This document shows positions 2,015 through 34,591 of a stretch of 64,000 bases of DNA, piece after piece. The notes beneath the pieces are model-generated. The model saw nothing but the letters and a program-made list of their open reading frames with translations, was not told where the DNA came from and ran no database searches. The translations under genes were made by a program, and so were the position numbers. Position 1 is the first letter of the stretch, and every line of letters starts with the position of its first letter. Source of the DNA: Patescibacteria group bacterium (GTDB lineage Bacteria; Patescibacteriota; Minisyncoccia; Minisyncoccales; GWA2-38-27); assembly GCA_020148045.1 (NCBI GenBank), contig JAHCRG010000006.1, positions 137,909-201,908 of the forward strand, given 5' to 3'.

Positions 2015-2029
2015 GAGAGGAGGTAAGAA

Positions 2030-4083: not shown

Positions 4084-4209
4084 TAAACCTATTACTACCA
4101 GAAATTTTTTTGAAGTTTTGGTGTGAGGGTGAAGGGCGAGGATTAAAAAAATCTTCGCCCTGTTTTTATTTTTTATTTCCATTTCCGATTTTTTTTACAT
4201 TTCTATTTT

Positions 4210-4236
4210 GCCCGAGGCCCGTCCTCGGGCAGTTTT
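4210..4236 (+). terminator. Intrinsic terminator, copy 2 of the triplicated hairpin
   Basis: tgcccgaggcccgtcctcgggca plus tttt. Confidence 0.8.
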
Positions 4237-4278
4237 GGTGTAGGGGTTGACCCCCACTTTTGTTAGTTTGAATGGAGG

Positions 4279-4307
4279 TTGACAATCTTCTTTGGTTATG
4301 ATAATTT
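4279..4307 (+). promoter_or_regulatory. Sigma70-type promoter of curlin gene 2
   Basis: TTGACA (4279-4284), 17 nt ending in TGa, then TAATTT (4302-4307). Confidence 0.6.
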
Positions 4308-4342
4308 ACAAGATATCTAAAAATCAATTCGTTAAAGGAAAA

Positions 4343-4389
4343 AATCCGAGAGGATTGATTTTTATCTTGGCGGTTCGTTTAAAACTTAA
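4343..4389 (+). promoter_or_regulatory. Conserved 5' leader element, copy 2
   Basis: Exact 47-nt repeat of 576-622. Confidence 0.55.
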
Positions 4390-4391
4390 AA

Positions 4392-4424
4392 GGTAACTTG
4401 GTAGCAGTTAAGGACGTTGAATGA
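4392..4424 (+). pseudogene. 33-nt relic of the csgG 3' end (GNLVAVKDVE-stop) carried by the duplication
   Basis: Identical to csgG 2918-2950, but no csgG body lies upstream of it. Confidence 0.8.
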
Positions 4425-4474
4425 TTTCTATCCAGTATAGACATAGACAGAGATGAAAGAAAGAGAGGTAATTT

Positions 4475-5380
4475 ATGAACAGAAGGATTTTAATAGTAAC
4501 AATGGCTTTGGTAATTCTTCTTGGTTTGTCTGGATTAGCTTTTGCCGATGGGAATGTGAGCACGGTCAATCAGACCGGCGCTGGCAATAGTGCTACGGTT
4601 AGCCAAGCTGGTATTAACAACGATGCTGAGATTACTCAAAATGGCAATGGGAACGTTTCTTCTCAGAGCCAAGCCGGCCCTGTTGGTAATAACGAAGCTA
4701 AGATTCTCCAGGTTGGTAACACGAATATTGCTTCCCAAGACCAGAGGATCGGCAACAACCTGGCCGAGATTAAGCAGACCAGTACAGGTAGCAACCTTGC
4801 TTCTCAAATCCAGTGGGGCCAATGGAATATTGCCCTGATTGAGCAAATTGAAGGGAGCAACGGCAATAGGGCTTACCAAGTCCAGCTCAGTAAAGGCCAC
4901 AATGCTTATATTAAGCAGGACGAGAACGCAACTGGCAACTATGCTTCTCAAACCCAGTCTGGTGGTCCTGGGATGGGCGGCGAGAACACCGCTGGGATAT
5001 GGCAGAGCGGAGACTCCGCCACTGCCATTCAGAACCAGACTGGTAATGTGAATGGTGCCTACATTAGGCAGAGAGGCGTTGCCAGCCGGGCTTACCAAAC
5101 CCAATATGGTATCTCCAACGCCGCCTTTATTGTCCAGTTCTCATCTGGAAACTATGCTGCACAAGACCAGACAGGTGAGGGCAATGAAGCCAGGATTCGG
5201 CAGTTTGGCGGTGACGGCAACGTAGCTTACCAAACCCAGAACGGTAACGACAACGATGCTTTCGCTACGCAGGTTGGTTCTAGTAATTTCAGTTCTCAGA
5301 CCCAGAACGGCACCAGCGATTTCAGTGTTGTCCAGCAGATAGGAAACGGTAATGTGTCTACGGTTGTCCAAAGCAACTAA
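4475..5380 (+). CDS. Second curlin-repeat amyloid subunit (CsgA/CsgB-like), 301 aa
   Basis: The first 17 residues match the 3001 gene exactly, the next 8 differ at 2 positions, and the repeats then diverge (VSQAGINNDAEITQNGNGNVSSQSQ...). The C-terminal IGNGNVSTVVQ is paralogous to IGDGNVATVVQ. Confidence 0.88.
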   Translation: MNRRILIVTMALVILLGLSGLAFADGNVSTVNQTGAGNSATVSQAGINNDAEITQNGNGNVSSQSQAGPVGNNEAKILQVGNTNIASQDQRIGNNLAEIKQTSTGSNLASQIQWGQWNIALIEQIEGSNGNRAYQVQLSKGHNAYIKQDENATGNYASQTQSGGPGMGGENTAGIWQSGDSATAIQNQTGNVNGAYIRQRGVASRAYQTQYGISNAAFIVQFSSGNYAAQDQTGEGNEARIRQFGGDGNVAYQTQNGNDNDAFATQVGSSNFSSQTQNGTSDFSVVQQIGNGNVSTVVQSN

Positions 5381-5540
5381 GTCAATGTTTTAACCCGGGG
5401 CAATAGTGCTCCATAGAATTTCATCTTGTTTATGTTTGGAAGAAATAAACCCCCACTACCAATTTCATTGGTGTGAGGGTGAAGGGCGAGGATTAAAAAA
5501 TCTTCGCCCTGTTTTTTTCGATTTTTTTACATTTCTATTT

Positions 5541-6736: not shown

Positions 6737-8467
6737 TTAATTCATCTCTATTTTGTAAACTTCTGAGTTGTTGAGAAGATGGATTGTTTTGTTGTCTGAG
6801 GAGATATCAAGATCTTTGAGATTATCAAATTTTTGGCTTTGGAATTGCTTGATGATTTTGCCTTTTTTATCAATAATAACAACTCTGTTTTTTACTGGTT
6901 CTAAAAGATAAAGATAGGGGATATCTGCTTTGGTTTTGATTTGAGTAATATTTTCTGGAAATGGGAAGAAATCAGGGATTATAGTTTCTTGAAAAGAACC
7001 AGCATAGTAGCGAAGGACTGAATTATCTTCGTTCAAAATCCAAACTGAACCGTCAACTGTCATTGATTTTGGCTCAGAGCAAGGGCCTTTATCTTTCGTC
7101 CATTTTTTAGGAGAGCCCCAATTTAGAGCCCCTAAGAGAGAATATTTAATAATCTCGCAAGTTTTTTTGTCTAAGAAGTAAAGATTGGAAAGGTAAGAAG
7201 CGGATAAATCAAAATTAAATTCAAATGAAGGTGGGTCAACAAGAGAGCTGGAAGGAGAAGAGAACAAGCTTGAATCCGGTTCATTTACAAGTTCGGGATT
7301 TTCAATCTTTTCTAATTTGTTTAAATTTTCCAAGTTTTCTTCAATTGATTGTTTTAAATCAATTATATCAGAAGTTTTTGTTTCGGTTAAAGGTAAAATT
7401 TCTTTCCAGGCCTCTTTAAAAAGAGAATTGGCTTCTTCTTCGTTTTTAAAAATTAAAAAGCTTTCTGCCTGATTAACTTTTTCTTGTATCTTAGCTAAAG
7501 AGGTTCTAATTTCTTTTTCTTTTCTTCCCACTGCTTGTTTAAAAATTAAAAATCCCAGGAGGAGAACAGAAGCTAAGACAAGAATCAGAATTAGCTTTTT
7601 CTTAATGTTTGTCTTGGGACGAAGTTTTTCTATTATAGGGCCTGGTGTAGGTATTTTTATTTTTGGCAATTTTATCTTTGGCAAATTTGGCTTTTTGATA
7701 ATCTTCGGAAGTTTAAAGGGAAATCTAATTTTTGGAAAGGAGAATTTCTTTTCGCTTTGAAAAAGAATCGCTTTGCCTCTTTTTGTTGGTTCTGTTTTTA
7801 CAACAGAGAGGAGGCAAGTCCCAGAAACTTTTGAGCCCTCGCCTTTAGTAAAAAGAGAAGAGGGTAAAATTTCTTTTATTTTTTTTCCATTAATATTTTC
7901 GCTTTGAGCGATTTTAGTCAATAGATTTTGCTGAAGGAAAAATTCAAAAATCTCCTTGGTCAAAACCAAGATTTTATCATCTTGAGTTAATTTGCCTGAA
8001 ACAACATTAAGAAAAATTTTCAAAGGATAGGGTTCAATTTCCCGGAGGTCTAAGTTTTTACCAATATCAATTATTTGTCCGGCTCTTAACAGCAAAATTT
8101 TAATATCGCCGGTTTTAGTAAAAATTAAATTAAAATCTTTTAAAGAAAAAACAGCAAAGTTTAAGTTTCCCAGCCAGCTGACATTTTCCTTTTTTACTTT
8201 TTCAGCTAAATATTCATTTGTTTTTTTTAAACTTTGCGAAAGAGCTTTTTCAGGAAATTTTTGGGAAAAAGTATAATAGCTTTTCTTGATAGCTTTAGCA
8301 ATATCATCTAAAAGTTTTAGATTTTGGGGCAGAACGTTCCGAAGTTCTCCAACAACGTATAAATTTCCTAGGTTCTTCTCGTAGATATTTTCCGGTTCAT
8401 AAATAAAACTGTCAAAGATTTGGTCTTCTTTTAGTTTAGGGTTAAAATGTAGTTCAAATACTTGCAT
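6737..8467 (-). CDS. Hypothetical membrane protein: N-terminal weak PP2C/SpoIIE-like region, central TM, C-terminal beta-rich domain
   Basis: Long ORF. I prefer the start at MQVFELHF (8467), because the longer ORF start at 8509 lies only 5 nt from tRNA-Val (8514). TM segment LILILVLASVLLLGFLIF. The functional assignment is weak. Confidence 0.6.
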   Translation of the reverse strand: MQVFELHFNPKLKEDQIFDSFIYEPENIYEKNLGNLYVVGELRNVLPQNLKLLDDIAKAIKKSYYTFSQKFPEKALSQSLKKTNEYLAEKVKKENVSWLGNLNFAVFSLKDFNLIFTKTGDIKILLLRAGQIIDIGKNLDLREIEPYPLKIFLNVVSGKLTQDDKILVLTKEIFEFFLQQNLLTKIAQSENINGKKIKEILPSSLFTKGEGSKVSGTCLLSVVKTEPTKRGKAILFQSEKKFSFPKIRFPFKLPKIIKKPNLPKIKLPKIKIPTPGPIIEKLRPKTNIKKKLILILVLASVLLLGFLIFKQAVGRKEKEIRTSLAKIQEKVNQAESFLIFKNEEEANSLFKEAWKEILPLTETKTSDIIDLKQSIEENLENLNKLEKIENPELVNEPDSSLFSSPSSSLVDPPSFEFNFDLSASYLSNLYFLDKKTCEIIKYSLLGALNWGSPKKWTKDKGPCSEPKSMTVDGSVWILNEDNSVLRYYAGSFQETIIPDFFPFPENITQIKTKADIPYLYLLEPVKNRVVIIDKKGKIIKQFQSQKFDNLKDLDISSDNKTIHLLNNSEVYKIEMN

Positions 8468-8513
8468 GATAGTTCTATTTATTATAATATATATAAAAAT
8501 GGTGAGCAATCTT

Positions 8514-8586
<73 letters not shown>

Positions 8587-8699
8587 CAATGGCATCATTA
8601 GAGTAGCTTTTTGGTTCTTTCACCAAGTTTCACCAGAGTTTACTCTCTGCACAATGATGTCAGCAAGCCCTCACACCAAAATTAGTAGTGTGACGGGCA

Positions 8700-8748
8700 A
8701 GGGAGAGTTTGGCGTTCCCTCTCCGGCCAATACTCTCCCTCTTTTTTT
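8700..8748 (+). terminator. Terminator closing the tRNA-Val transcription unit
   Basis: agggagag (8700-8707) pairs with ctctccct (8734-8741), followed by a T7 run. Confidence 0.55.
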
Positions 8749-8767
8749 AAAACAAAAGCCCAGCTTC

Positions 8768-9442
8768 TCATTGCTGAGCTTTTATTTCATCTATACCCCT
8801 TTTGTAATAGTCCTCCAAACTCTTCCAGCCCCAATAAATCATTAGTATCAGACCTAAATCAATCAAGAAAATGGAAAGATTAATTAAAGGAAATCCTTGG
8901 TATTTTTCAATACTTAAGGAAAATAGCCAAACCAGAATTACAGTAAAACCGCAGCCAGTTTTCCTTCGCCCCCATTTATTGGGAGAAAGATCAATTTTTA
9001 TCCCTTTAATGTAATAGTAGAAAGCTCCAATACATCCAGCAATAAAAATTGCTCCAACTATTGAAAGCATCAAAATTCCCAAAGCAGTGGTAAGGCCGTT
9101 AGTATAGAAGGGTAGGTTCGTTAACTTCCAACGATTGTGCCAGATTAAAACCATCAATGCTGGATAAATAAAAACATGGTCTGCTAGTATGTCTAAAATA
9201 GAACCAAACACACTTTTACCGTAACGTCGTGCGATCGGCCCATCAATACAATCGGTGAAAGTAGCGAGCCCGCCCAAAATATCTATTAACCAGAGTCGGT
9301 CGGGATTATTAATGGCTGTAAGCAAAAACCAAACAGCCATTACCAATCTACTTAAAGTAATACTGTTGGCTAGGTTTTGTTGCAGCCAAGTTGGTATCAA
9401 ACGAATCTTTTCTCTTATATATTCAGAGATTTTTCTGTTCAT
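8768..9442 (-). CDS. CDP-alcohol phosphatidyltransferase family protein
   Basis: Motif DCIDGPIARRYGKSVFGSILDILADH, which is DG(x)2AR(x)8G(x)3D(x)3D. Multiple TM segments. Confidence 0.85.
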   Translation of the reverse strand: MNRKISEYIREKIRLIPTWLQQNLANSITLSRLVMAVWFLLTAINNPDRLWLIDILGGLATFTDCIDGPIARRYGKSVFGSILDILADHVFIYPALMVLIWHNRWKLTNLPFYTNGLTTALGILMLSIVGAIFIAGCIGAFYYYIKGIKIDLSPNKWGRRKTGCGFTVILVWLFSLSIEKYQGFPLINLSIFLIDLGLILMIYWGWKSLEDYYKRGIDEIKAQQ

Positions 9443-9513
9443 TTCATTCTCCTTTCATTTTTCAGTTGAGAAGGAACATTTTTGTTTTTTGTTGGATGTA
9501 GTATAATATAATA

Positions 9514-9894
9514 ATGAGTATTTTTTTGCAAGGATTAATTTGGCAGTTTTTTGATGTGCCAAAAGCAATTTTAAAGGGCTGGAAAAATTTTCTTTTGTTT
9601 AATTTAAATTATTTTTCAGTTCCTATTCTTTTGAAAACCTTTTTTTCTCATTGGCGCAGATATCATTATCCTTATGGAAAAGTATTTGAGGCATGGAAAA
9701 ACATTGAGACATTTGTTTTTAATATGATGTCCAGAATTATTGGGGCTCTTTTAAGAACCATTTTTATAATTTTGGGACTATTCATAGAAGCTTTAATAAT
9801 TTTAGGAGGAACGATAGTATTTTTTGGCTGGCTTTTATTGCCAGTTTTATTATTGGCAGGATTATTATTCGGCTTAAAGCTCGTTTTTTACTAA
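9514..9894 (+). CDS. Small polytopic membrane protein, function unknown
   Basis: 126-aa ORF with three hydrophobic segments. TATAAT (9502-9507) lies 6 nt upstream of the ATG. Confidence 0.6.
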   Translation: MSIFLQGLIWQFFDVPKAILKGWKNFLLFNLNYFSVPILLKTFFSHWRRYHYPYGKVFEAWKNIETFVFNMMSRIIGALLRTIFIILGLFIEALIILGGTIVFFGWLLLPVLLLAGLLFGLKLVFY

Positions 9895-9910
9895 TTTTGT
9901 TTCATGACCT

Positions 9911-12412
9911 ATGTTCAACTTTAATCTTAAAAAAGCAAAGATATATCAAGCGGTGAAATGGGAAAAGTTTTCGTTTTTTAGATTTGCTAAAATTTTAAAG
10001 ATATTGTTTTTTGTTTTGTTTGTTTTAGTGTTTTTAGCATTTCTTTATGGATTTGTGCCGGAGAATTTCTCGCCAGAGACCAACAGGACTCTATTAGGTC
10101 TTTCAATAATTTTTCTTGTTTCAACTCTGAGTTCTTGGATTAAAGAAAGCTTTTTTAATTTAAAATTAAAAAAGCCAGAGCTTAAAGCTAATATTAGTGA
10201 AGCATTATTAGATCCGGAGAGCTATAACCTGGCTGAGTTTTTAAGCTTTGAAGCAGCTAAGGCGGTTAGTAAGTCCAAATTAAGCTCAACTCGTCTTTTT
10301 TATTTTATTTTAATTGATAACCCGAAATTAGATTTTATTTTCTTACGCGCCCTTTTGGATTCCAACGAGATTAAAAAAATATTAAAGAAAGAGTTAAAGG
10401 CCAAAGAATCCGATAATTTTCAAAGAACTATTCTTGAGGCCTTGGGAATAGCCCAGAAAAAAAATCATACCAGAATTGAAATAGGGGATGTCCTATCTGC
10501 TCTTGCCAAGCATAACCTGATTTTTAAAAGGATTTTAGTTAAACATAAACTCAAAGCCGAGGATATTGAAAATTTAACCTGGTGGTTGGAAAATATTAAA
10601 GAAAAAATCAAAAAAAGGAAAAGGTTCTGGGAATATGAAAATTTAGCTAAAAGAGGAACATTGGCTAAAGAATGGACAGCTGGTTATACGATAGCTTTAG
10701 ATAGATATTCCAAAGATTTAACTGATTCAATTAGGAAGAAGGATTTAGAATTTGTTGGCCATAAAGAAGAAATGAAGAGGATAGAAAGAATTTTAGCTAG
10801 AAGAGAAATTAATAATGTTTTAATAATTGGGGAACCAGGCACAGGAAAAAGAAGCATGGTTTATGCTTTAACCCAGATGAGTTTATTAGGCAGAAGTTTG
10901 CCTGGGGTGAGTTACAAGAGGGTGGTTGAATTAGATGTGCCGGCTTTACTGGCTCAACTTGAAAGTATGGAAGATGTTGAAGCTACTTTAGATAAAATTT
11001 TCCAGGAAGTAGTTTTGGCTGGCAATATTATTTTGGTGATTGATGGATTCCACAACTATATTGGCCAAGTTTCCAGGCCAGGAATAATTGATATTTCAGG
11101 AGTTATCGCACCCTATTTACGTTTTCCCCAATTTCAAATTGTAGCAATTACAACTTACGAAGGTCTTCACAGATATATTGAAAAAAATCCTTCTATCTTA
11201 TCTCTTTTTGGGAAAGTAGAGGTTTCAGGAATCTCCCAAAGGGAGACGCTTGTGCTTTTGGGGTATTTAACCTTTGCTCTTGAGAAAAGATACAAAATCT
11301 TTATTTCTTATCCTGCTATGCGAGAGATAATTTCTTTGACTGACCGTTATTTCCCTTCCCTTCATTTTCCCGAGAAAGCCATAGACATTTTAGATGAAGT
11401 AGCAGTTTATGTTGCGGGCTCAACAAGAGAAAAAGTAGTTTTGCCAAAGCATATAGCTAAGATTATTACCGAAAAGACCGAGATTCCGGTGGGAGAGATA
11501 GAGGCGAAAGAAAGAGAGGTTTTACTCAATTTAGAAAATTTAATTCATCAAAGAATTATTAATCAGGACGAAGCAGTAAAAGAAGTTTCAACTGCCCTTC
11601 GGAGAGCCAGGTCAGAAGTTACAGTAAGAAAAGGTTCAATGGGTTGCTTTTTGTTTTTAGGACCTACCGGGGTTGGTAAAACCGAAACCTCAAAAGCCCT
11701 GGCAGAGTATTATTTTGGTTCAGAAAAGAAGATGATAAGATTAGATATGTCAGAGTTTCAAGATATAAAAGACATCCCTAGATTGATTGGTTCTGCAACT
11801 GAGACAGGGCTTTTAACAACTCCGGTTCGGGAAAATCCCTTTTCTTTAATTCTTTTGGATGAAATTGAAAAAGCTAATCACAATATTTTGAATTTATTTT
11901 TACAGGTTCTTGATGAAGGTCATTTAACAGATGGTTTTGGAAGAAAGGTTGATTTTAAAAATTCAATAATTATTGCCACCAGTAATGCTGGTTATAAGGT
12001 GATTTTGGAAGCTTTAAAAAGAAAAACCGAATGGGCAGGAGTAAAACAAAAACTTTTAGATTATCTTTTTGAGAAAAGAATATTTAGACCAGAATTTATC
12101 AATCGTTTTGATGCAGTTGTCGTTTTCAGGCCCTTAACCAAAGAAAACCTTTTAGATATTGCTCAGCTGATGTTATCAAAATTAAAAAAGAATCTTCAAA
12201 AAAAAGGCATTGAATTTATAATTACAGAACCCCTCAAAGAAAAAGTAGTTGAATTAGGCTATAGCCCGGTTTTCGGGGCAAGGGCAATGAGAAGGGTTAT
12301 TCAGGATAAAGTAGAAAATGTTTTAGCTTCTGCCTTGCTTTCCGGCCAACTAAAAAGAGGGGATAGAGTAGAACTTGACCCAAAGAAATTTAAACTGATT
12401 ATTAATCCTTAA
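9911..12412 (+). CDS. Membrane-anchored ClpB/ClpC-like double AAA+ ATPase with a degenerate D1 module
   Basis: N-terminal TM segments, then Clp R-type repeats. D1 has GEPGTGKRS and ILVIDGFHN. D2 has the canonical GPTGVGKTE and LILLDEIEKA. The ClpB D2-small domain is present. Confidence 0.85.
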   Translation: MFNFNLKKAKIYQAVKWEKFSFFRFAKILKILFFVLFVLVFLAFLYGFVPENFSPETNRTLLGLSIIFLVSTLSSWIKESFFNLKLKKPELKANISEALLDPESYNLAEFLSFEAAKAVSKSKLSSTRLFYFILIDNPKLDFIFLRALLDSNEIKKILKKELKAKESDNFQRTILEALGIAQKKNHTRIEIGDVLSALAKHNLIFKRILVKHKLKAEDIENLTWWLENIKEKIKKRKRFWEYENLAKRGTLAKEWTAGYTIALDRYSKDLTDSIRKKDLEFVGHKEEMKRIERILARREINNVLIIGEPGTGKRSMVYALTQMSLLGRSLPGVSYKRVVELDVPALLAQLESMEDVEATLDKIFQEVVLAGNIILVIDGFHNYIGQVSRPGIIDISGVIAPYLRFPQFQIVAITTYEGLHRYIEKNPSILSLFGKVEVSGISQRETLVLLGYLTFALEKRYKIFISYPAMREIISLTDRYFPSLHFPEKAIDILDEVAVYVAGSTREKVVLPKHIAKIITEKTEIPVGEIEAKEREVLLNLENLIHQRIINQDEAVKEVSTALRRARSEVTVRKGSMGCFLFLGPTGVGKTETSKALAEYYFGSEKKMIRLDMSEFQDIKDIPRLIGSATETGLLTTPVRENPFSLILLDEIEKANHNILNLFLQVLDEGHLTDGFGRKVDFKNSIIIATSNAGYKVILEALKRKTEWAGVKQKLLDYLFEKRIFRPEFINRFDAVVVFRPLTKENLLDIAQLMLSKLKKNLQKKGIEFIITEPLKEKVVELGYSPVFGARAMRRVIQDKVENVLASALLSGQLKRGDRVELDPKKFKLIINP

Positions 12413-12435
12413 TAATAAAAACAAGAAATAAAACA

Positions 12436-12466
12436 GGCCGGGTGGTCTTTGACCACTCGGCCTTTT
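12436..12466. terminator. Bidirectional intrinsic terminator
   Basis: ggccgggtggtc-ttt-gaccactcggcc plus tttt, between convergent genes. Confidence 0.8.
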
Positions 12467-12471
12467 GCTTT

Positions 12472-13311
12472 TTAAAATTCTATAGCTATTGCCGTAGCTT
12501 CTGGGTAGTCTTCGTGGGTTAAGGATTTCTTATCATCTGCAATTTGGCGGGTAGCTTCTAGGATAGCATACAGCCCACCCTTTTTATAAAGCCGGATTAT
12601 TTCTCCTGCCATTCCTAATTCATTTTTTGTCCATTCAAACGGAATGAGACCGTCAGAGAAAAGAAGCAAAAACCCTATTCCCGCCCGCGGAAGTGTAAAT
12701 TTCTGCCAAAAATGTTCAAATTCAGGCTGACCATTAAGAAGAGCAAATCCTCCTTGCTTAGTGTTGATATTGGCTCGTCGCTTTTCTGTAAGAATGGGGC
12801 GGAATTCCTCCCACATTTTCTGCCTATCTCCTTTATGTTTTTTCATAAGCTCTGCGATAATGAGAAGAAGTTCCTCCTCGTAACTATATGTTTTGTTAGG
12901 GGTTGCTCCAAGGGTTCCGTCTTTTGTTTGCCATATTGCTAGAGCATCTCCTCCTTGAAGAATGTGGATATTCGTAGTGTTTACAGATGCTACAACAAAA
13001 GCAGCAGAAGGAAGCAATTCTGATTCCTTTAGAGATAAACCACTTGCCTCAATATCCTGGCGAATCAAGCTATTTGCTCTCCGAACAATGCCTTCCAAAG
13101 AAGATGTTGCTGGAGAGGCATTTCTAAAAGCATAAGAAATAATATGTGATGCAAGTTGACCACCTGTCATTCCGTGAAAAAGTGTTGGACCTTCGTCAGG
13201 AAGATAAATTCCGGTTATGCCATCAGTTACAGCATAGTAATAAGGGGGCTGGAAAATAATCCCATCTTCAGGGATACGCGCACTACCTTGATCATACAAA
13301 ACCTTTATCAT
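12472..13311 (-). CDS. Hypothetical protein, possible PPM/PP2C-like phosphatase fold
   Basis: 279-aa ORF with an RBS aaaggag. Weak motifs AVTDGITG and LLLFSDGL resemble PP2C metal-binding segments. Confidence 0.6.
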   Translation of the reverse strand: MIKVLYDQGSARIPEDGIIFQPPYYYAVTDGITGIYLPDEGPTLFHGMTGGQLASHIISYAFRNASPATSSLEGIVRRANSLIRQDIEASGLSLKESELLPSAAFVVASVNTTNIHILQGGDALAIWQTKDGTLGATPNKTYSYEEELLLIIAELMKKHKGDRQKMWEEFRPILTEKRRANINTKQGGFALLNGQPEFEHFWQKFTLPRAGIGFLLLFSDGLIPFEWTKNELGMAGEIIRLYKKGGLYAILEATRQIADDKKSLTHEDYPEATAIAIEF

Positions 13312-13417
13312 TGGTTACTCCTTTCTTTCATTTTTTGATTTTCAAATAACATTGGTTATGACAACAGCGCCATAACACTTGAATTGTATCATAGTATATC
13401 AAATCTGTCAAGATTTT

Positions 13418-13534
13418 GTGGGTGTGAAAAAAATGTGGAAAAGTATGGGTTGACGGGGGTATATGAAGTGGGGTATAAAGAAAGCAGAGTGTATAATTGT
13501 GGAAAACTATGGGAAAACCCCTAGTTTTTGTGGA
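13418..13534 (+). promoter_or_regulatory. mraZ promoter region with phased GTGG(G/A)/ATGGG boxes (candidate MraZ operators)
   Basis: Boxes at 13418, 13435, 13445, 13468, 13499, 13509 and 13530. Two pairs are spaced exactly 10 bp apart. TTGACG (13450) and TGTATAAT (13490-13497) are promoter candidates. Confidence 0.5.
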
Positions 13535-13539
13535 AAACT

Positions 13540-13971
13540 ATGTTTATTGGAGAATATTGTCATATTATAGATACTAAAAAACGTTTATCTCTTCCAGCTA
13601 AATTTCGAAGAGAGCTCGGTAAAAAAGTAACAGTGACTAGGGGTTTTGAGAATTGTTTGGCTATTTATCCAGAAAAAGAATGGAAGATAGTAACAGATAA
13701 GTTAGAAAAATTGCCAACAAGTCAAATTGGAGTCAGAAGTTTTAGCAGAGTTATTCTTGCTGGTGCCATGGAGGTTAGCTTAGATAAGCTAGGAAGAATT
13801 CTTATTCCAGATTATTTAAAAAAATACGCTGGTTTAAAAAAGAATGTTATAATCTGCGGACTCTCTAACAAGTTAGAAGTTTGGGATGTTCAGAAATGGG
13901 AAATATACCGGAAGAGAGCTGAAAAGGATATTGAGAAGGTTGGAGAGCAATTACCAGAGTTGGGAATTTAA
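13540..13971 (+). CDS. mraZ: Transcriptional regulator MraZ
   Basis: MFIGEYCHIIDTKKRLSLPAKFR and a second SpoVT-AbrB repeat (GRILIPDYL). Located at the head of the dcw cluster. Confidence 0.9.
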   Translation: MFIGEYCHIIDTKKRLSLPAKFRRELGKKVTVTRGFENCLAIYPEKEWKIVTDKLEKLPTSQIGVRSFSRVILAGAMEVSLDKLGRILIPDYLKKYAGLKKNVIICGLSNKLEVWDVQKWEIYRKRAEKDIEKVGEQLPELGI

Positions 13972-25027: not shown

Positions 25028-26401
25028 TTATTCTGTATATTCTCCTTTTTCAAGGTTTCTAAAGCATACTCTTCGGTCGTCAAAATAAAGTTCAACTTTT
25101 CCTACCGGTCCATTTCTATGTTTAGCAATAATAATATCAGCAATATTTTTCCTGGTAGTGTCAGGACGGTACCTGTCCTCGCGATATATAAAGAGCACCA
25201 CATCCGAGTCCTGCTCCAGGCTCCCACTTTCACGTAAATCTGCTAATCTGGGGATTTGGGGGGAGCGTTGTTCTACTGCCCGGGAAAGCTGGGATAAAGC
25301 AAGGACTGGAACATTAATCTCTCTAGCCAAACCTTTAAGGGCTCGAGAGATTTCAGTTACTTGTTGAACCATAGTGGTCGCTGGATTTCTGGGCTCCATC
25401 AGTTGTAAATAATCAATAATAATAAGCCCTAATCCATGTTCTGCCTGTAATCTCCTTGCCATTGCTCTCATTTGCAAAACATTAGAAGAGGCAGCATCAT
25501 CAATATAAATTGGGGCTTCGGATAGCAGACCCATTGTATGTTGAATTCTCGTAAAATCATTGTCTTCGCCTTCGCTGGAAAGCCGGCCAGTCCTTAACCT
25601 CCATAAGTCAACATTAGATAAACCAGCAATCAATCTATCTACTACCTGGTCTTTTGACATTTCTAAACTAAATAATCCTATTGGGATTTTTTGATTGACG
25701 GCAATATTAGCTGCAATATTTACAGCCAAAGCGCTCTTTCCCAGAGAGGGGCGGGAAGCTAAAATTACCAGGTCAGATTTTTGGAGGCCAGCTAAAATAT
25801 TATCTAAATCAGTAAAGCCGGTTGGAAGTCCTCGAAGACCTCCTTCGTGTTTGGAGAGTTTATCAATTCTTTCAAAAGCATCTTCTAAACCATCTTTAAT
25901 CAGGATAAACCGTTGGGTTAAACTTTTTTGGGCAATACTAAAAATTCTTTGTTCAGCCCGGTCCAAAAGCACATCAATATCTTCTTTTTCGTCATAGCCT
26001 ATTGAATTAATTTCCTGGCTGGCTTCAATTAAGTCCCTTAAAATTCTTTTTCTTTGGACGATTTTGGCGTAATTTGAGATATGGGCAGCAGTAGGAACAG
26101 TATTAATAAGTTCAGTTAAATAACTATTTCCACCAACTTCTTCCAAGAGTTTCTTTTCTTTGAGGCGGCTAGAAACAGCTAATAAGTCAACTGGTTCTCC
26201 TTTTTCAAAAAGCTCTACAATTGCCTGGTAAATTTGCTGATGATTTTGTTTATAAAAATCTCGCGGCTGAAGGAAATCCGCCACCTTAATAATAGCGTTC
26301 TTATCCAACGTTAAAGAACCTAATAAAGATTTTTCTGCCTCAATATTTTGGGGCGGAAGTTTTTCAGGCCCGCCCAAGTTTTGATTTTCCTTAGCCATCA
26401 A
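25028..26401 (-). CDS. dnaB: Replicative DNA helicase DnaB
   Basis: PPQNIEAEKSLLGS, Walker A SRPSLGKSA, IIDYLQLM, ALSQLSR. Confidence 0.93.
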   Translation of the reverse strand: MMAKENQNLGGPEKLPPQNIEAEKSLLGSLTLDKNAIIKVADFLQPRDFYKQNHQQIYQAIVELFEKGEPVDLLAVSSRLKEKKLLEEVGGNSYLTELINTVPTAAHISNYAKIVQRKRILRDLIEASQEINSIGYDEKEDIDVLLDRAEQRIFSIAQKSLTQRFILIKDGLEDAFERIDKLSKHEGGLRGLPTGFTDLDNILAGLQKSDLVILASRPSLGKSALAVNIAANIAVNQKIPIGLFSLEMSKDQVVDRLIAGLSNVDLWRLRTGRLSSEGEDNDFTRIQHTMGLLSEAPIYIDDAASSNVLQMRAMARRLQAEHGLGLIIIDYLQLMEPRNPATTMVQQVTEISRALKGLAREINVPVLALSQLSRAVEQRSPQIPRLADLRESGSLEQDSDVVLFIYREDRYRPDTTRKNIADIIIAKHRNGPVGKVELYFDDRRVCFRNLEKGEYTE

Positions 26402-29065: not shown

Positions 29066-30184
29066 ATGGCTAATTTAGTTTTATACAGAAAATACAGGCC
29101 GCAGACCTTTACTGAGATTATCGGCCAAGAGCATGTGGTCCAAACCCTGACTAATGCAATTGCTTCAGGCATGATTTCCCATGCTTATTTGTTTTCTGGC
29201 CCCCGGGGTTCAGGAAAAACCACTATTGCCCGGCTTTTGGCAAAATCAGTAAATTGTCGTAATCATAAGGATTCTGAATTTGAGCCCTGCGATAAATGCT
29301 CTTCTTGTTTGGAAATTAAACAAGGCAACTCTTTAGATTTGATTGAAATTGATGCTGCCTCACACCGAGGCATTGATGAAATCAGAGAATTGAGAGAAGG
29401 GATTAAATTTGCTCCGACAAAAGAAAAATACAAAGTTTTTATAATTGACGAGAGCCACCAATTGACCCGCGAAGCAGTCAATGCTCTTTTAAAAACTTTG
29501 GAAGAACCACCTTCTCATGCAATATTTGTTTTAGCTACAACCGAGATTCATAAAATGATTCCAACCATTATTTCCAGATGCCAGAGATTTGATTTCAGAA
29601 AACTAACCTTGCCTGAAATTATCAAAAGATTAGATATTATTTCTAAAAAAGAAAAAGCAAAAATTGATAGACCAGCTCTGGAACTCATTGCTTTAAATTC
29701 CGGGGGTTCAATAAGAGATGCTGAAAGTTTATTAGACCAGGCCTTGACTTTTACCGGAACTTTAGGGAGAGAGGGGATAATCAAAACAGAAGATATTAAA
29801 GATTTATTGGGATTGACAGATATAAATTTAATCAACCAGTTTGTTGATTTTATTTCTGAAAAAAGCGGGGAGAAAGCTATTAAATTTTTGGAGGAAACTT
29901 TTGAAAAGGGTTATGACCCTCAAGAATTTGCCAAGGCATTAGTTCGTTATTTAAGGCAGACAATGCTTTTGAAAATAAATCCCAGTCCAATGAACCCGGT
30001 GATTATTGGTTTAACCAAAGAAGAGCAAGAAAAAATTCAAACTCAGGCAGAGAAGTTTAACTCCCAGGAACTTCAGCACATTTTAAACCTTTTTCTGGAG
30101 GCAGAAAACAAAATGAAATATTCCTCAATTCCGCAACTTCCATTGGAATTAGCAATAGTTGACATAATACACCAAGAAGGGTAA
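29066..30184 (+). CDS. dnaX: DNA polymerase III subunit gamma/tau (short form)
   Basis: YRPQTFTEIIGQEHV, GPRGSGKTT, zinc module CxxCxxC, FIIDESHQL, SRCQRF. Confidence 0.92.
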   Translation: MANLVLYRKYRPQTFTEIIGQEHVVQTLTNAIASGMISHAYLFSGPRGSGKTTIARLLAKSVNCRNHKDSEFEPCDKCSSCLEIKQGNSLDLIEIDAASHRGIDEIRELREGIKFAPTKEKYKVFIIDESHQLTREAVNALLKTLEEPPSHAIFVLATTEIHKMIPTIISRCQRFDFRKLTLPEIIKRLDIISKKEKAKIDRPALELIALNSGGSIRDAESLLDQALTFTGTLGREGIIKTEDIKDLLGLTDINLINQFVDFISEKSGEKAIKFLEETFEKGYDPQEFAKALVRYLRQTMLLKINPSPMNPVIIGLTKEEQEKIQTQAEKFNSQELQHILNLFLEAENKMKYSSIPQLPLELAIVDIIHQEG

Positions 30185-30196
30185 AATATATTTTAT

Positions 30197-30267
30197 TCCG
30201 GGGTCATCTAATGGTAGGATGTTGGGTTTTGGTCCCAAAAATTTTGGTTCGAATCCAAACCCCGGAG
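30197..30267 (+). tRNA. tRNA-Gln (anticodon UUG)
   Basis: TCCGGGG/CCCCGGA acceptor, TTGGG-TTTTGGT-CCCAA anticodon arm, TTTGG-TTCGAAT-CCAAA T arm. 71 nt, no encoded CCA. Confidence 0.85.
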
Positions 30268-30383
30268 CACCGATTAGAGGGTTAATAACTCTCTTTTTAT
30301 TTGACTAATTTAAATAATAAGTATAATCTTTAAGCAGTATTTTCCAAATAGAATAATGAAAGAATAAATCAGAAAGGGAAAAA

Positions 30384-30800
30384 ATGGGTAAAAAAAAATC
30401 AAATAAGCGGATTTTAAGACCAATAGAAGTAGAAGATTTAATGAGGGGGCGTGCTGGAAAAATTACTATTCGTTTTGATCCGCAAGACTTAGTGGAATTA
30501 CAATGTCATTGTGATTATGATCCTAAGCTATGCGGTAAAGAAGACGAAGATAACAAAGTAATGTTAGTAAGAAAAATAGAAGTTCAGAATCCCGATGGTT
30601 CTTGGAGCCCTTATCCAAGTGTTACTTGGCTCGATGGCGTTGAGGGTGAAGACGATGAACAACTTGTTACCAGAGCTTTTATTAAAAAAACTGACGAAGA
30701 AGGATTTGACATCATGAGTTCTTGGCAAGGGGTTCCAGATGGAACATTGATGTGTGCTGCTAAAGGAGCTGGTATTCATACGGAAACCATATATGGATAA
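30384..30800 (+). CDS. Hypothetical protein (138 aa, acidic, Cys-containing)
   Basis: ORF with an RBS aaagggaaaaaa. An own terminator hairpin lies at about 30810-30848. Confidence 0.55.
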   Translation: MGKKKSNKRILRPIEVEDLMRGRAGKITIRFDPQDLVELQCHCDYDPKLCGKEDEDNKVMLVRKIEVQNPDGSWSPYPSVTWLDGVEGEDDEQLVTRAFIKKTDEEGFDIMSSWQGVPDGTLMCAAKGAGIHTETIYG

Positions 30801-30851
30801 TAAATATAAAGCGACTTATCGTTAGATGTATAAGTTGCTTTTTATTTTCCT

Positions 30852-30924
30852 AAACAGGTTCTAACATCGTCCATCCCGTGGCACGCCAAAAAAAATCGCC
30901 AAGAAGGCGATTTTTTGGTAGAAT
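30852..30924 (+). repeat. Intergenic cassette-flank repeat, copy A (AAACAGGTTCTAAC box, A8-TCGCC hairpin, TGgTAGAAT)
   Basis: Shared with 31803-31881 and partially with 32723-32780 by direct comparison. Confidence 0.8.
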
Positions 30925-30932
30925 AAAAAAGC

Positions 30933-31778
30933 ATGTATTTTGATTTTCCAATTATAGACATACATACTCATTTAAGAGAATACCCTTCTCTGGGTTTAAG
31001 ATTGAAAAACCGAAAAAACATAAAGAATGTCTTGGGCAGAGAGGCATACTTTGGTCGGATTAACATCTTTCTTTATATGGCGAACACCGAACCGCCATTA
31101 GACAGCCTTGGGATTATAAAGAAATCATTAGAAATTCCAAGATATAAAGAAGTAAAAGCAATACCGGTAAGCGCGATTACAAAGAATTTAGATGGAAAAG
31201 AGCCAGTTGATGTGGAGAATATAAAACCTTATGTTGCAGGATTTAGCGATGATGGAAAATGTTTAGGCAATCTAGAAATATTAAAATATGTACTAAGTAA
31301 AAATGTTTTGGTAATGGCTCATTTAGAACCCGAAACGGAAATGCTGAAAAAATATTTAGAGATTTATAGCGAGACTGGTGGCCATTTACATTTCCAGCAT
31401 ATAAGTAGAAAAGAAAGTGTTGATTTAATCAGAATAGCAAAAAAGGATGGATTAAAAATAACTTGTGAAACCTGCCCCCATTATTTTTATTTTACTTCTC
31501 GAGACATGGATCTAATAATGAATCCTCCTCTTGGAGACACCGAAGATTTAAACGCCATTATTGAGGGGTTAAAAGACGGCACAATAGATGCAATTGCTTC
31601 TGATCACGCACCCCACGATGACCCCTTAAAGAATGGTTTAAGGGGTATAAGAGTATTAGTTCCTTTGTCTTCAGGATTGGTTTTAAAAGGTTTTTTAAAC
31701 GAAGAACAACTGAAAGAGAAACTGTATACTAACCCCAAAAAGATAATTGAAAGTGGGGGATATAAGCTTCATCTGTGA
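30933..31778 (+). CDS. Truncated dihydroorotase-like metal-dependent amidohydrolase
   Basis: IDIHTHLRE and ASDHAPH motifs. At 281 aa it is far shorter than canonical PyrC. Confidence 0.65.
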   Translation: MYFDFPIIDIHTHLREYPSLGLRLKNRKNIKNVLGREAYFGRINIFLYMANTEPPLDSLGIIKKSLEIPRYKEVKAIPVSAITKNLDGKEPVDVENIKPYVAGFSDDGKCLGNLEILKYVLSKNVLVMAHLEPETEMLKKYLEIYSETGGHLHFQHISRKESVDLIRIAKKDGLKITCETCPHYFYFTSRDMDLIMNPPLGDTEDLNAIIEGLKDGTIDAIASDHAPHDDPLKNGLRGIRVLVPLSSGLVLKGFLNEEQLKEKLYTNPKKIIESGGYKLHL

Positions 31779-31802
31779 AGTAAGCTTCTTTAAATTTCAA
31801 CC

Positions 31803-31881
31803 AAACAGGTTCTAACCCTTCAATTTTTCAGGGCAGGCATCGTCCAAAAAAATCGCCAAGAAGGCGATTTTTTGGTAGAAT
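31803..31881 (+). repeat. Intergenic cassette-flank repeat, copy B
   Basis: AAACAGGTTCTAAC, then CATCGTCC, then the ccaaaaaaatcgccaagaaggcgattttttgg hairpin, then TAGAAT. Confidence 0.8.
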
Positions 31882-31922
31882 AGAAACGAAAGGTCGCAAT
31901 ATAACTTTAATTAAAAAATAAT

Positions 31923-32702
31923 ATGTCTAAAACATTAATTGCAATCATTACCATAGTAGTTATTATAATAGTAGGTTATTGGATTTATCAATCAATTTCA
32001 GCACCTCAAGGAATAACTGAGGCAGAAGCCAAGAACTGTGAAGTTGATTCTGATTGTGTTGTTTTTGGAGAAGATGGGGACTGTAATTGTGGATGTTTTA
32101 ATAAAAACTACCAATGGGAAAAAGAAGGCGATTGTTTTTGTGCAGCCCCAAAGTCCTGTAAATGCGTAAATGGGAAATGCGAAGGAGTTTTTGAAGAAGA
32201 GCCTTTAGTTTCTAAAGAGGAAGCAATAAAAAAACTTTTTGCTGAAAAGTACGATAAAGAAGTTTCAGAAATCACCATAAATATCAGCAAGGAAACAGAG
32301 GGTCATCTTATGGGCGGAGTTAAGTTTGGAGAAGGAGGACCTGGCGAAGAGGGTGGTTTTTTAGCAGCTAAAGAAAATGGTAACTGGAAATTAGTATATG
32401 ATGGGGTTGGAGCTATGTTTTGTTCAGACATTGAGCCTTATAACTTTCCAGTAGATATGGTTATTGAATGTTGGGATGAAGAGGCTGGAAAAGTAAAAGA
32501 TAGAGCAGGAGAGGCATGTATTGATTCTGGAGGCGAGATAACAACTTCTCTATGCTGTAAAGCAACCAGTGATTATCCAAACCTCTGTCTTGTTGGTCCC
32601 TGCGGGTGTGCTCCGGATTACAGCCATCAGGTAAAAATTTGTGATTGTGGACCCGATAAATGCTTTAATGGTAATGAATGTGTAGTTCTGGAAAATAAAT
32701 AG
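31923..32702 (+). CDS. Membrane-anchored Cys-rich secreted protein, function unknown
   Basis: N-terminal TM, then two Cys-rich modules (CEVDSDCVVFGEDGDCNCGC... and CIDSGGEITTSLCC...CGCAPD...CDCGPDKC). Confidence 0.6.
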   Translation: MSKTLIAIITIVVIIIVGYWIYQSISAPQGITEAEAKNCEVDSDCVVFGEDGDCNCGCFNKNYQWEKEGDCFCAAPKSCKCVNGKCEGVFEEEPLVSKEEAIKKLFAEKYDKEVSEITINISKETEGHLMGGVKFGEGGPGEEGGFLAAKENGNWKLVYDGVGAMFCSDIEPYNFPVDMVIECWDEEAGKVKDRAGEACIDSGGEITTSLCCKATSDYPNLCLVGPCGCAPDYSHQVKICDCGPDKCFNGNECVVLENK

Positions 32703-32722
32703 GAAAATTCTCCCAAAACTAA

Positions 32723-32780
32723 GTTCTAACATCGTCCGTCCCCCGGAGCAAAGTAAAATTGCCCAGCGATGGGCAATTTT
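32723..32780 (+). repeat. Intergenic cassette-flank repeat, copy C (GTTCTAACATCGTCC plus an AAAATTGCCC hairpin)
   Basis: The 15-mer is identical to 30858-30872. It contains CCCCGGAGCA (32741-32750), identical to the tRNA-Gln 3' end at 30260-30269. Confidence 0.7.
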
Positions 32781-32812
32781 ATTTATCCAATGAACAAAAC
32801 AATAGTTAAATC

Positions 32813-34591
32813 TTAGGGAATATAATAGATAAATATTGAGTTGCCGACCCGGGTTATTGGCTGATAATCGTCAAGCCAGCGATAGTAGCCGGTTGGTTGA
32901 TCAAAACCATGGGTAGGACTTCCTTTGCCTCCCTGAAGAAGGGTTGCCGAGACCGCCAGATAACTTCCTTGGGGAAGTTCTTTTTTATTACGATCGCCCC
33001 ACCAGGAAGCATATTTTTCTTTTAGATAATATTCGGTATCGCCTCCGCCAAAATAATCAACATAAATTTTCTCAATCTTATTTTCATCCACCCATTTTTT
33101 TAGTCGTTTCAAATCCTGGCCCCAATCATAGTTTGAATCCACCACATATTTGTATCCATTTTGGGGCCCTCCGGCAATTTCATTAAAATAGGTTAAGTAG
33201 TGAGGCCAAACCAAGAGAGAAGAAATTATGTAAAAGCCCAAAAGCACCGAAACAAGAGAAGTTCCCATTTTTTTCCGGGATATGCCGGGTATTCTTTTTA
33301 TCCATTTTGCTATTCCCAGACTAACTAAAATATAGGTAAAAGGAAAAACAGGCAAAAGGTGCCTTACTCCAATATTAAGAGTTCCAGTTATAGAAGTGAG
33401 CCAATAAATTATTAAAAATACCATCATTGAAAATTCGGGAAAATGATTTTTTATCCAATCTTTTAACCGATGAAAAGTATTTTGCCAAAAAGGCTTTTTA
33501 ATTATAATTAACCAGGCTGCATACAAAAGAACAATTAAAGTTAAAATATGAAAAGCTAAGGGTATTTTTAAAAGATAAACAGTCGGGAAATAATACCACC
33601 AGCCCCCATTTGAAATTTCATTAAGAAAATACACAGTATTGCCGCCAGCTACCCTTTGAGTAACCATTAGAAGTCCTAAAAGATAATAGGCATAGGGTCG
33701 GAGCACTGGTTTGTCAGCCATCCAGAGACAAAGATTTTTTAGAGGATTTATGCCGCTTGAAGCTAAAATAAATTCAGAATCTTGTAATTGGCGTTCGGCT
33801 GGATAATTTAAAAGATGAAATTGATAAACCGGCCAGATAAGAATCATTCCAATTATTCCTACAATTAGAGCCAGCCCGATGTATTTCAGAATTCCTAAGA
33901 GGCATTTTTTAGAACCCTTTTCTTGAGACCAAGCATAAATTACGGTAATTACAGCAAAGAAGGGAACAAGCAGGGCTAAGGAAAATTTTAAGAGCATTGA
34001 TAGCCCGAATATCAGCCCGGCTAAAATTATATTCTTTTTTGTCGGGCTTTTTAGAAATTTTAACCAAAAATAAGTAGCCAAGACCACTCCCAAAGCAGCT
34101 GCAATATCAGTAGTTACCAATCTCCCATGAGCCAGAAAAGTAGGGGAGAAGGAAAATAGGGTTAAGACCAAAAGAGCAACTTTGTTTCCGGCTAATTCTC
34201 TTGCCCAGCGAAAGAGGAACCAACCTAAAAATATTAAAAGCAAAATCATTGGGATTCGGGCCCAAAATACAATCTGATCAGGATTGTTCCCCGAACGATA
34301 CAAAAACTGAGAACCAAACCACCACTGTTCATTAATTCCCTCAGTCCAGGAAGCATGGTTTTTTGGGAAATTCAGGTCCAAAGATAGAAGAGGGACAGCA
34401 GCTAGGTCTTTTATCAATGGCGGATGCTCCGGGTTAATTCGAAAATCTTTCTGGGTTAAATAAGAATAGCCGGCCGGGATATGAGACATTTCGTCCATGG
34501 TGGCTGAATCATCTTTCATACTGAAAAAGCAAACTAAGAATACCGTAAGAAGCAGAAGACCAGCGATTAAATTTGTGAGACGGTTAGACAT
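32813..34591 (-). CDS. GT-C fold glycosyltransferase (family 39/83-like, polyprenyl-phosphate-sugar dependent)
   Basis: 592 aa and polytopic. The first-loop acidic motif is DDSATMDEMSHIPAGYSY. The C-terminal soluble domain is typical of PMT/ArnT-like enzymes. Confidence 0.7.
   Translation of the reverse strand: MSNRLTNLIAGLLLLTVFLVCFFSMKDDSATMDEMSHIPAGYSYLTQKDFRINPEHPPLIKDLAAVPLLSLDLNFPKNHASWTEGINEQWWFGSQFLYRSGNNPDQIVFWARIPMILLLIFLGWFLFRWARELAGNKVALLVLTLFSFSPTFLAHGRLVTTDIAAALGVVLATYFWLKFLKSPTKKNIILAGLIFGLSMLLKFSLALLVPFFAVITVIYAWSQEKGSKKCLLGILKYIGLALIVGIIGMILIWPVYQFHLLNYPAERQLQDSEFILASSGINPLKNLCLWMADKPVLRPYAYYLLGLLMVTQRVAGGNTVYFLNEISNGGWWYYFPTVYLLKIPLAFHILTLIVLLYAAWLIIIKKPFWQNTFHRLKDWIKNHFPEFSMMVFLIIYWLTSITGTLNIGVRHLLPVFPFTYILVSLGIAKWIKRIPGISRKKMGTSLVSVLLGFYIISSLLVWPHYLTYFNEIAGGPQNGYKYVVDSNYDWGQDLKRLKKWVDENKIEKIYVDYFGGGDTEYYLKEKYASWWGDRNKKELPQGSYLAVSATLLQGGKGSPTHGFDQPTGYYRWLDDYQPITRVGNSIFIYYIP

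Follow-up and report, generated by a model that had tools for sequence, protein, structure and literature searches.

Gene arrays punctuated by a linear 33-nt site with a tRNA-like tail downstream of tRNA genes in Nealsonbacteria and related Parcubacteria

A small array of three genes lies directly downstream of tRNA-Gln(ttg) in a 64-kb stretch of a Patescibacteria genome (contig JAHCRG010000006.1, positions 137,909 to 201,908), which was analysed as a whole and is called the window below. Judged by protein hits and by related loci, the source organism is a Patescibacteria member of the Nealsonbacteria type. Each of the three genes is followed by a copy, intact or damaged, of a linear 33-nucleotide (nt) site, here termed EL, whose 3′ end resembles that of a tRNA. 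Arrays of the same anatomy occur in relatives and in metagenome contigs (these loci carry L-numbers, e.g., L132 and L322): they are anchored at tRNA 3′ ends, their sites all point in one direction, and they share gene units whose homology breaks at the edges of EL. In Nealsonbacteria and their Parcubacteria relatives, gene arrays of this kind are widespread and apparently undescribed; a full-text literature search found neither the sequence of the EL box nor such arrays in these bacteria, which does not in itself prove their absence from the literature. The segment 30268–32750 of the window is probably a three-unit cassette array that was built by site-specific recombination at tRNA 3′ ends, with the recombinase encoded elsewhere.

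The array in the window and its repeated site

A first-pass annotation, made from the sequence letters, had described three co-directional open reading frames (ORFs) after tRNA-Gln(ttg), which is borne out by ARAGORN, by Rfam, and by the ORF coordinates; the repeats that it had listed are all present. The array is composed of the following elements.

30197–30268, + strand: tRNA-Gln(ttg), the array head (ARAGORN and Rfam, 60.6 bits), with the 3′ end CCCCGGAGC
30384–30800, + strand: ORF1 of unit 1, 138 aa, a conserved hypothetical protein of Patescibacteria without a Pfam family
30852–30884, + strand: EL-A, AAACAGGTTCTAACATCGTCC + ATCCCGTGGCAC, box complete, tRNA-like tail degenerate (nhmmer E=3.7e-08)
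30933–31778, + strand: ORF2 of unit 2, 281 aa, a compact dihydroorotase-like amidohydrolase, full length for its family
31803–31845, + strand: EL-B, box nt 1–14 (31803–31816), a 21-nt insertion (31817–31837), and CATCGTCC (31838–31845), tail-less (weak nhmmer hit, E=0.088)
31923–32702, + strand: ORF3 of unit 3, 259 aa, with an N-terminal membrane anchor and Cys-rich modules, without a Pfam family
32717–32749, + strand: EL-C, first 7 nt degenerate (AACTAAG), then GTTCTAACATCGTCC + GTCCCCCGGAGC (E=2.6e-05)

The EL consensus consists of a 21-nt box, AAACAGGTTCTAACATCGTCC, followed by an A, about three variable positions, and CCCGGAGC, i.e., 33 nt in total. The profile was built from 135 copies that had not been picked by the search pattern, and in these copies the edges of the site are sharp: there is no conservation at position −1, the conserved block spans positions 0–32, and conservation is absent from position 33 on. 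Most positions of the box are 82–99% conserved, with position 3 (62%) and position 14 (75%) being more variable. The tail comprises about 12 nt, the last 8–12 nt of the site resemble the 3′ acceptor strand of a tRNA, and the 3′ boundary reads ...CCGGAGC. The larger part of EL, the 21-nt box, is not a tRNA sequence, and formation of a T-arm is impossible. Folded as single-strand DNA, the two strands of EL give −0.1 and −1.2 kcal/mol (z=+1.3 and +0.7), which is no better than shuffled sequences, and no Rfam family was found in the window region or in four array loci.

Within the window, AAACAGGTTCTAAC is found exactly at 30852 and 31803 and, if up to two mismatches are allowed, it has five matches versus a mean of 0.66 in shuffled sequences, none of 100 shuffles reaching five. 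The segment GTTCTAACATCGTCC is exact only at 30858 and 32723 in the whole 64 kb. The earlier observation that the tRNA 3′ end recurs in the last flank is correct, as CCCCGGAGCA is exact only at 30260 and 32741: the tail of EL-C, together with the following A, equals the 3′ end of tRNA-Gln across 10 nt, and it is this 3′ end, CCCCGGAGC, that the tails of the repeated site mimic. EL-C alone has kept a good tail, that of EL-A has decayed, and EL-B is disrupted by the insertion of CCTTCAATTTTTCAGGGCAGG after box position 14 (31817–31837); therefore, at least part of the array in the window is probably no longer active, and the array is probably partly fossil.

Distribution of the site, tRNA likeness, and reuse of units

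A scan with DnaX, one genome per species, yielded 80 related loci (877 kb). In nearly all of them, CysS (− strand), GtrA, DnaX, and tRNA-Gln(ttg), usually along with about 10 kb further upstream, follow the order of the window, and this synteny stops exactly at tRNA-Gln. No homologues of the downstream window ORFs were found at the corresponding position after the tRNA in the 80 loci, including L132 with its 91% identical DnaX; only three loci, L154, L162, and L170, have a partial match to ORF2 or ORF3 downstream of the tRNA. The comparison of relatives at tRNA-Gln, proposed in the first-pass annotation as a check, thus gave a downstream gene order that is not conserved. In one subclade, a conserved block returns 1.8 to 7.5 kb past the tRNA, and the region that follows tRNA-Gln is therefore variable in itself as well as in length. 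Of the 80 contigs, at least 12 stop within 100 nt past tRNA-Gln, a pattern that repeats or strain variation give in assemblies; EL arrays could account for such breaks. Two tandem tRNA-Gln(ttg) genes follow DnaX in L175 (3016–3194), and a tRNA-Gln(ctg) gene lies within the variable region of L165 (13491–13562), where the ELs after it bear the 3′ end and the trailer of that tRNA.

The box recurs in the relatives, often several times per locus, and is always downstream of the tRNA and on its strand. With the EL model, nhmmer detects 31 copies in the 307 kb downstream of tRNA-Gln, all on the tRNA strand, versus 0 copies in the 538 kb upstream. The exact 20-mer AACAGGTTCTAACATCGTCC is present in at least 120 metagenome stretches (576 kb), and these carry, among the matches listed, 258 ELs, which within each single contig all lie on the same strand. 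The spacing of ELs among the same matches has a median of 806 bp and is mostly 315–1500 bp, and the largest arrays comprise up to 9–10 ELs (L325, L280, and L310). The median distance from a stop codon to the start of the next EL is 51 nt, that from an EL to the next gene start is 109 nt, and 82% of the ORFs are co-oriented with the ELs. The gene pool is highly diverse: the 776 ORFs of the arrays form 674 clusters, of which 603 are singletons, and the recurrent families are small single-domain proteins (NUDIX, CSD, GIY-YIG, dCTP deaminase, HTH, and hemerythrin). The box is near-identical across species whose DnaX proteins are just 66–70% identical, and across arrays located at different tRNAs.

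In L310, two consecutive blocks of five ELs (1549–5498 and 8433–13768) have no tRNA between them; the first block contains the box variant AAAAAGGTTCCAAC with the tail CATAGGGCCAGC, while the second block has the standard box with the tail AGTTCCCGGAGC, so box variant and tail type co-vary. Pairs of ELs of differing subtype lie only 55–68 nt apart in L181 (3227/3279 and 9307/9362) and L280 (1677/1741), and such close pairs may be empty units or composite sites.

Contigs that extend to an array head have a co-oriented tRNA gene at that point, for Gln(ttg), Gln(ctg), Asn(gtt), His(gtg), or Glu. The EL tails match the 3′ end of the nearest upstream tRNA at 6.50 of 11 positions, versus 5.55 ± 0.19 for permuted pairings, and none of 2000 permutations was as high. 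The match is not exact everywhere, and there are a few recurring tail types, e.g., AGTYCCCGGAGC, ACGACCCGCAGC, CATAGCCCCAGC, and CCTAGGGGACC. In L170, L165, L288, L259, and L287, the likeness extends beyond the tRNA into its trailer/terminator: the shared tail and trailer read ...GCCCCGCAG TTAGCTACCCCGAGAG... in L170, CCCGCAAC AAATT in L165, and CCCCTAGG..ACCC TAG.AAA..ATCGCC... in L288. Because trailers are functionless as RNA, their sharing argues that ELs and the tRNA 3′ end have exchanged DNA.

The same units are reused in different arrays. A unit with a 65-aa cold-shock gene is present in five arrays with differing neighbours, and a 63-aa gene is shared by the arrays of L132 and L322 at 96% identity. 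L262 and L311 share 2.2 kb at 99.7% identity on the right-hand side of ...GGAGC, and on its left-hand side they are unrelated. More generally, 48 of 114 internal left ends of shared blocks (42%) fall within −80 to +120 nt of an EL start versus about 7% expected, and these breakpoints peak at the 5′ and 3′ edges of EL. The end of synteny at the tRNA, the EL-punctuated units elsewhere, the tRNA-like tails, and the reuse of units all give strong support to the earlier description of a cassette-like islet at tRNA-Gln with an att-like flank, in which recombination would be the underlying process.

Proposed mechanism, alternatives, and related systems

According to the preferred reading, ELs would be recombination sites that a recombinase encoded elsewhere in the genome cleaves and rejoins. 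Gene units would be taken up either at an EL already present or at the 3′ end of the tRNA, shifting older units outward, and they would be lost or moved via recombination between two ELs or between an EL and the tRNA end, with the junction possibly at or beside the 3′ edge of EL. A broader proposal, which is put forward tentatively, is that Nealsonbacteria and related ultra-small bacteria possess a dedicated, non-integron kind of gene capture, where a recombinase encoded away from the array would add and remove single-gene units at a linear 33-nt site; tRNA 3′ ends would be the primary place of docking and the tRNA promoter region the entry, and the arrays would be the main store of flexible genes of these reduced genomes.

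Several results weigh against recombination of this kind. Searches seeded with XerD, gamma-delta resolvase, and the L335 integrase of Patescibacteria found no tyrosine or serine recombinase in the 64-kb window, the 877 kb of DnaX loci, or the 576 kb of EL contigs (about 1.5 Mb); as a positive control, the same search picks up the integrase of the related Patescibacteria metagenome contig L335 at E=6.5e-31. Recombinase domains are likewise missing from the Pfam lists for 20–56 kb of the window, and the remark in the first-pass annotation that no integrase is present in cis thus applies to all array-bearing DNA searched. Neither a circular unit nor a circular contig was found among the EL contigs, and L262/L311 is the only strain-level pair of an empty and an occupied site. 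Profile and folding revealed no inverted half-sites and no hairpin within the EL consensus, features that characterise the core sites of tyrosine recombinases, dif, and attC. Near relatives of ORF2 belong to ordinary cell-wall clusters free of ELs. Finally, the tails are alike within an array and not tied to the unit, and this is not expected from simple cut-and-paste at a single fixed point; it calls for gene conversion, for units made in place, or for an exchange that crosses the tail. Since tails are array-specific and units are shared, the exchange probably either includes the tail or leads to a later conversion towards the resident site; alternatively, units may gain their EL within the host lineage.

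Small GIY-YIG nuclease genes are found in or beside EL arrays in L310 (6663–7046), in L338 (4783–5022), and in two more EL contigs. The GIY-YIG proteins are possible candidates for a nuclease acting on the arrays.

It is unlikely that ELs are merely anchors for RecA-type homologous recombination, through which units would be shuffled with DNA taken up from relatives. The lack of a recombinase in cis, the almost identical box in different species, the uniformity of tails and post-EL modules within an array (as gene conversion would yield), and breakpoints located at both edges of EL rather than fixed to one nucleotide would all suit such anchors; however, 21–33 nt does not exceed the shortest length at which RecA recombination is usually efficient, and anchors of this type leave unexplained the start of arrays at tRNA 3′ ends, the mimicry of acceptor and trailer, the 258-to-0 orientation among the matches listed, and the strong conservation of the box. 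ELs might also be considered as RNA signals, that is, tRNA-3′-end-like 3′ untranslated or processing elements cutting or stabilising mRNAs that arise from tRNA-promoter read-through, given their location on the sense strand a median of 51 nt past stop codons, their tRNA-3′-end-like tail, and the strong promoter-like site of the tRNA. The chances of this explanation are small. Some ELs are placed past the gene's own terminator (EL-A in the window, L008 6663, and L340), they have neither a predicted structure nor an Rfam family, and their likeness to tRNA reaches into the non-functional trailer, which indicates common DNA descent; moreover, ELs are confined to arrays (0 among the neighbouring genes, 538 kb), and it is at their edges that blocks of homology end.

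One could further regard the arrays as decayed integrase islands or prophages that had been inserted serially into tRNA genes and left ELs as functionless attR scars. Both classic and Prochlorococcus islands resemble the arrays in lying at tRNA 3′ ends and in having repeats like a partial tRNA, a true EL stands beside phage structural genes in L130, and EL-A and EL-B are degenerate. This origin is nevertheless quite improbable: one-gene units of about 0.8 kb are far below the size of any self-mobile element, about 1.5 Mb contains no integrases or integrase fragments, and the 21-nt box, being non-tRNA and near-invariant across species (DnaX 66–70%) and tRNAs, points to selection and not to decay. 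Hardly credible is an integrase-less integron cassette array (CALIN) with attC sites as the flanks, an analogy raised in the first-pass annotation; co-oriented single-gene units, a site 3′ of each gene, a very diverse pool, and the absence of an integrase nearby would suit it. The attC sites are imperfect inverted repeats (R″-L″ ... L′-R′) of 57–141 nt that form a single-strand hairpin, and their R′ core GTTRRRY lies at the 3′ boundary of the cassette; at the level of site structure, the analogy breaks down, as folding and the profile reveal no hairpin and no inverted core sites: EL is linear, without R″/L″-L′/R′ inverted repeats, without GTTRRRY at its 3′ edge, and it does not fold. The hairpins that are present are T-run terminators, which follow just 41 of 294 ELs. 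Local duplication of a terminator–promoter spacer combined with a chance 10-nt match to the tRNA end would be in line with the 93% identity over 46 nt between the modules following EL-A and EL-B, and the 10-mer match alone is weak evidence; this possibility is nonetheless negligible, because box and tail are found in the same arrangement in dozens of other species and in at least 120 metagenome contigs.

A few narrower candidates were rejected. Flanks A and B show an apparent attC-like inverted match, GTTCTAAC...GGTAGAAT, but GGTAGAAT belongs to a general promoter module as its −10 box, ELs elsewhere lack the 3′ partner, and the consensus shows no folding. Elements A and B form open frames in phase with the ORFs upstream of them, and the differences between A and L132 fall mainly in third codon positions; nevertheless, EL is not coding, as the frame relative to the upstream gene is distributed 34/44/47 across 125 ELs and many copies have TAG at codon 2. 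The box resembles the variable-loop/T-loop region of a tRNA, but there is no complementary 3′ stem, 5–6 extra nt are present, and ARAGORN and Rfam call nothing, which speaks against a tRNA half or T-arm. A dif/Xer site, an extracytoplasmic-function-type promoter, and a DNA uptake sequence were discarded for want of inverted arms, a suitably spaced −10 box, and copies outside the arrays.

In their architecture, EL arrays are closest to integron cassette arrays and CALINs and also resemble tRNA-anchored islands, while the defining site and enzyme features of both are missing. They have in common with integrons and CALINs the co-oriented, mostly one-gene units (median 806 bp), the site 3′ of each gene, the huge and mostly singleton pool, and sites that are uniform within an array and differ between lineages; CALINs, too, occur without an adjacent recombinase. 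In sedentary chromosomal integrons, cassettes have been proposed to receive their site within the host lineage. Unlike in integrons and CALINs, the site of EL arrays is 33 nt, linear, and non-palindromic, has no attC cores, and has no folded single-strand form. Unlike integrons, EL arrays are anchored at a tRNA gene and not at an attI/intI platform, the tail of the site is tRNA-like, no IntI was found in the DNA searched, and many units are equipped with a terminator and a promoter of their own.

Archaeal “gene capture” at tRNA genes represents a further tRNA-anchored example. The tycheposons of Prochlorococcus islands span several kb, encode integrase and replication functions, and have true partial-tRNA repeats of about 40 nt (bioRxiv 10.1101/2020.12.28.424599). 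EL arrays share with islands of this type a variable region directly 3′ of the tRNA, co-oriented repeats resembling the tRNA 3′ end, a break of synteny at the tRNA, and, as proposed here, repeated insertion at one site, with older material pushed outward. They differ in that the units are about 0.8 kb and lack mobility genes, and the repeat is mostly a non-tRNA 21-nt box common to different tRNAs. As for a tRNA repeat at the distal border, the window has an exact match of 10 nt, only the last 8–12 nt of EL are tRNA-like, and trailers are shared in several loci. Xer-dependent pdif modules of Acinetobacter plasmids are small gene modules with short sites on which a chromosomal recombinase acts in trans; the dif-type site is 28 nt long, its 6-nt spacer lies between two inverted arms of 11 nt each, and the orientation changes from one site to the next. 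EL arrays are comparable in having small gene modules between short sites and, as proposed, a recombinase in trans, and they differ in that ELs lack inverted arms and share a single orientation.

Bacteria of the candidate phyla radiation have tiny genomes with few recognisable mobile elements, and how they acquire and exchange accessory genes is largely unknown. If the proposal is true, EL arrays would be an integron-like store of flexible genes for these bacteria; the site is present in many species and in at least 120 environmental contigs. The 33-nt site offers a handle for cataloguing the array gene pool in metagenomes, and it may be a starting point for finding a new type of recombinase or a targeting mechanism that recognises a mimic of the tRNA end.

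Array genes, terminator–promoter modules, and neighbouring DNA

None of the three ORFs is an orphan, although the first-pass annotation had presented them as orphan-like. ORF1 has 93 homologues in Patescibacteria at 36–100% identity (mostly 53–79%), which occur in differing contexts, several of them EL arrays; the linkage of ORF1, its own terminator, and EL is kept in both the window and L340. For ORF3, there are 188 homologues, of which many have just the Cys-rich modules in common with it, and partial homologues are located downstream of tRNA-Gln in L162 and L170. ORF2 matches solved dihydroorotases (PDB) at E=4e-31 and belongs to a very large family whose proteins comprise about 265–285 aa in these bacteria; thus it is of normal length within the family and is not a truncated dihydroorotase, as had been supposed. 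Its relatives at 75–78% identity sit in Mur-ligase/FemAB/DivIC clusters without ELs, and the array genes are therefore no separate, mobile-only pool. In L335 (6001–6846) and L337 (3922–4767), near relatives of ORF2 are flanked by genes for a Mur ligase, a MurL-like protein, an aminotransferase, FemAB, and an FtsQ-like protein. This hints at a role of the compact dihydroorotase-like relatives of ORF2 in the cell wall rather than in pyrimidine synthesis.

Aside from the genes and ELs, the array and its borders contain the following signals.

30159–30187, + strand: promoter-like TTGACA-17-TAAAAT directly 5′ of tRNA-Gln, agreeing with the consensus at 11 of 12 positions; putative, as a consensus match only
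30269–30305, + strand: tRNA trailer, a terminator-like hairpin AGAGGGTTAATAACTCTCT with a T-run; a homologous trailer is found 3′ of two ELs in L322
30808–30848, + strand: intrinsic-terminator-like hairpin of ORF1 with a T-run, ahead of EL-A
30887–30925, + strand: module A, an A-run, the hairpin TCGCC-AAGAA-GGCGA, and a T-run, then the extended −10 box TGGTAGAAT
31846–31882, + strand: module B, 93% identical to module A
32751–32784, no strand assigned: bidirectional terminator-like hairpin common to the array and the convergent PMT_2 gene, the distal array end in this genome

The first-pass annotation had treated the whole flank of each gene as one shared element. The repeat in it is real, and its true unit is the 33-nt EL; the hairpin and the −10 box form a separate module associated with some ELs and located outside the conserved site. 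Nor is every flank followed by the hairpin between an A-run and a T-run, since the hairpin-plus-promoter module occurs in the window only at A and B. The stretch comprising the hairpin and TGGTAGAAT is 46 nt long and 93% identical between 30884–30929 and 31841–31886, and the consensus of the module is ATCGCC-N5-GGCGRTTTTTT-GGTAGAAT. Over all loci, there are 95 copies on the EL strand and none on the other, 26 of the 95 being directly 3′ of an EL. Features of an intrinsic terminator/promoter spacer, i.e., a G+C-rich hairpin and a T-run, and a −10 box, are found at 30887–30925, 31846–31882, and 32751–32784, so this identity covers just the 3′ part of the flank and not EL. A terminator-plus-promoter module 3′ of an EL would insulate the next unit. 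As the ATG of ORF2 is only 8 nt past the −10 box of module A, the ORF2 transcript is probably leaderless.

Three viral contigs contain the 17-mer; in two of them, it is a chance match within a phage gene, and in one (L130, IMGVR_UViG_3300009529_003397), it is part of a true EL situated 90 nt from the contig end, beside phage structural genes and without an integrase. After this EL (region 14300–14731 of L130, − strand), about 300 nt are unusually G+C-rich, with no Rfam family and no tRNA. G+C-rich repeats, CCTCCTTCGCTAAAGCT.CGGACGGGCGAGCC..., are also found in L008 (5775–5900, 7416–7540, 8695–8930, and 10284–10415) and L161 (2025–2100); those of L008 have no Rfam match, fill several spacers of one Nealsonbacteria array, and substitute for EL from about position 18. 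In the same array, a 47-nt unit (TAAGAACCTTGCCTTCGGCAAGAACCTTG...) is repeated four times in tandem directly 5′ of an RRM_1 gene (9067–9294).

As to the neighbourhood of the array in the window, the next gene after ORF3 encodes a PMT_2 glycosyltransferase (32813–34591, − strand) and is convergent with the array. An ORF running off the start of the window (1–456) contains a long poly-glutamate run. Further upstream of the array, dnaB (25028–26398, − strand) is uninterrupted in the window, and its homologue in L143, L151, L168, L174, L194, and L211 consists of two matching pieces with about 1.2 kb between them, suggestive of an intein or an intron in the split DnaB homologues of these relatives.

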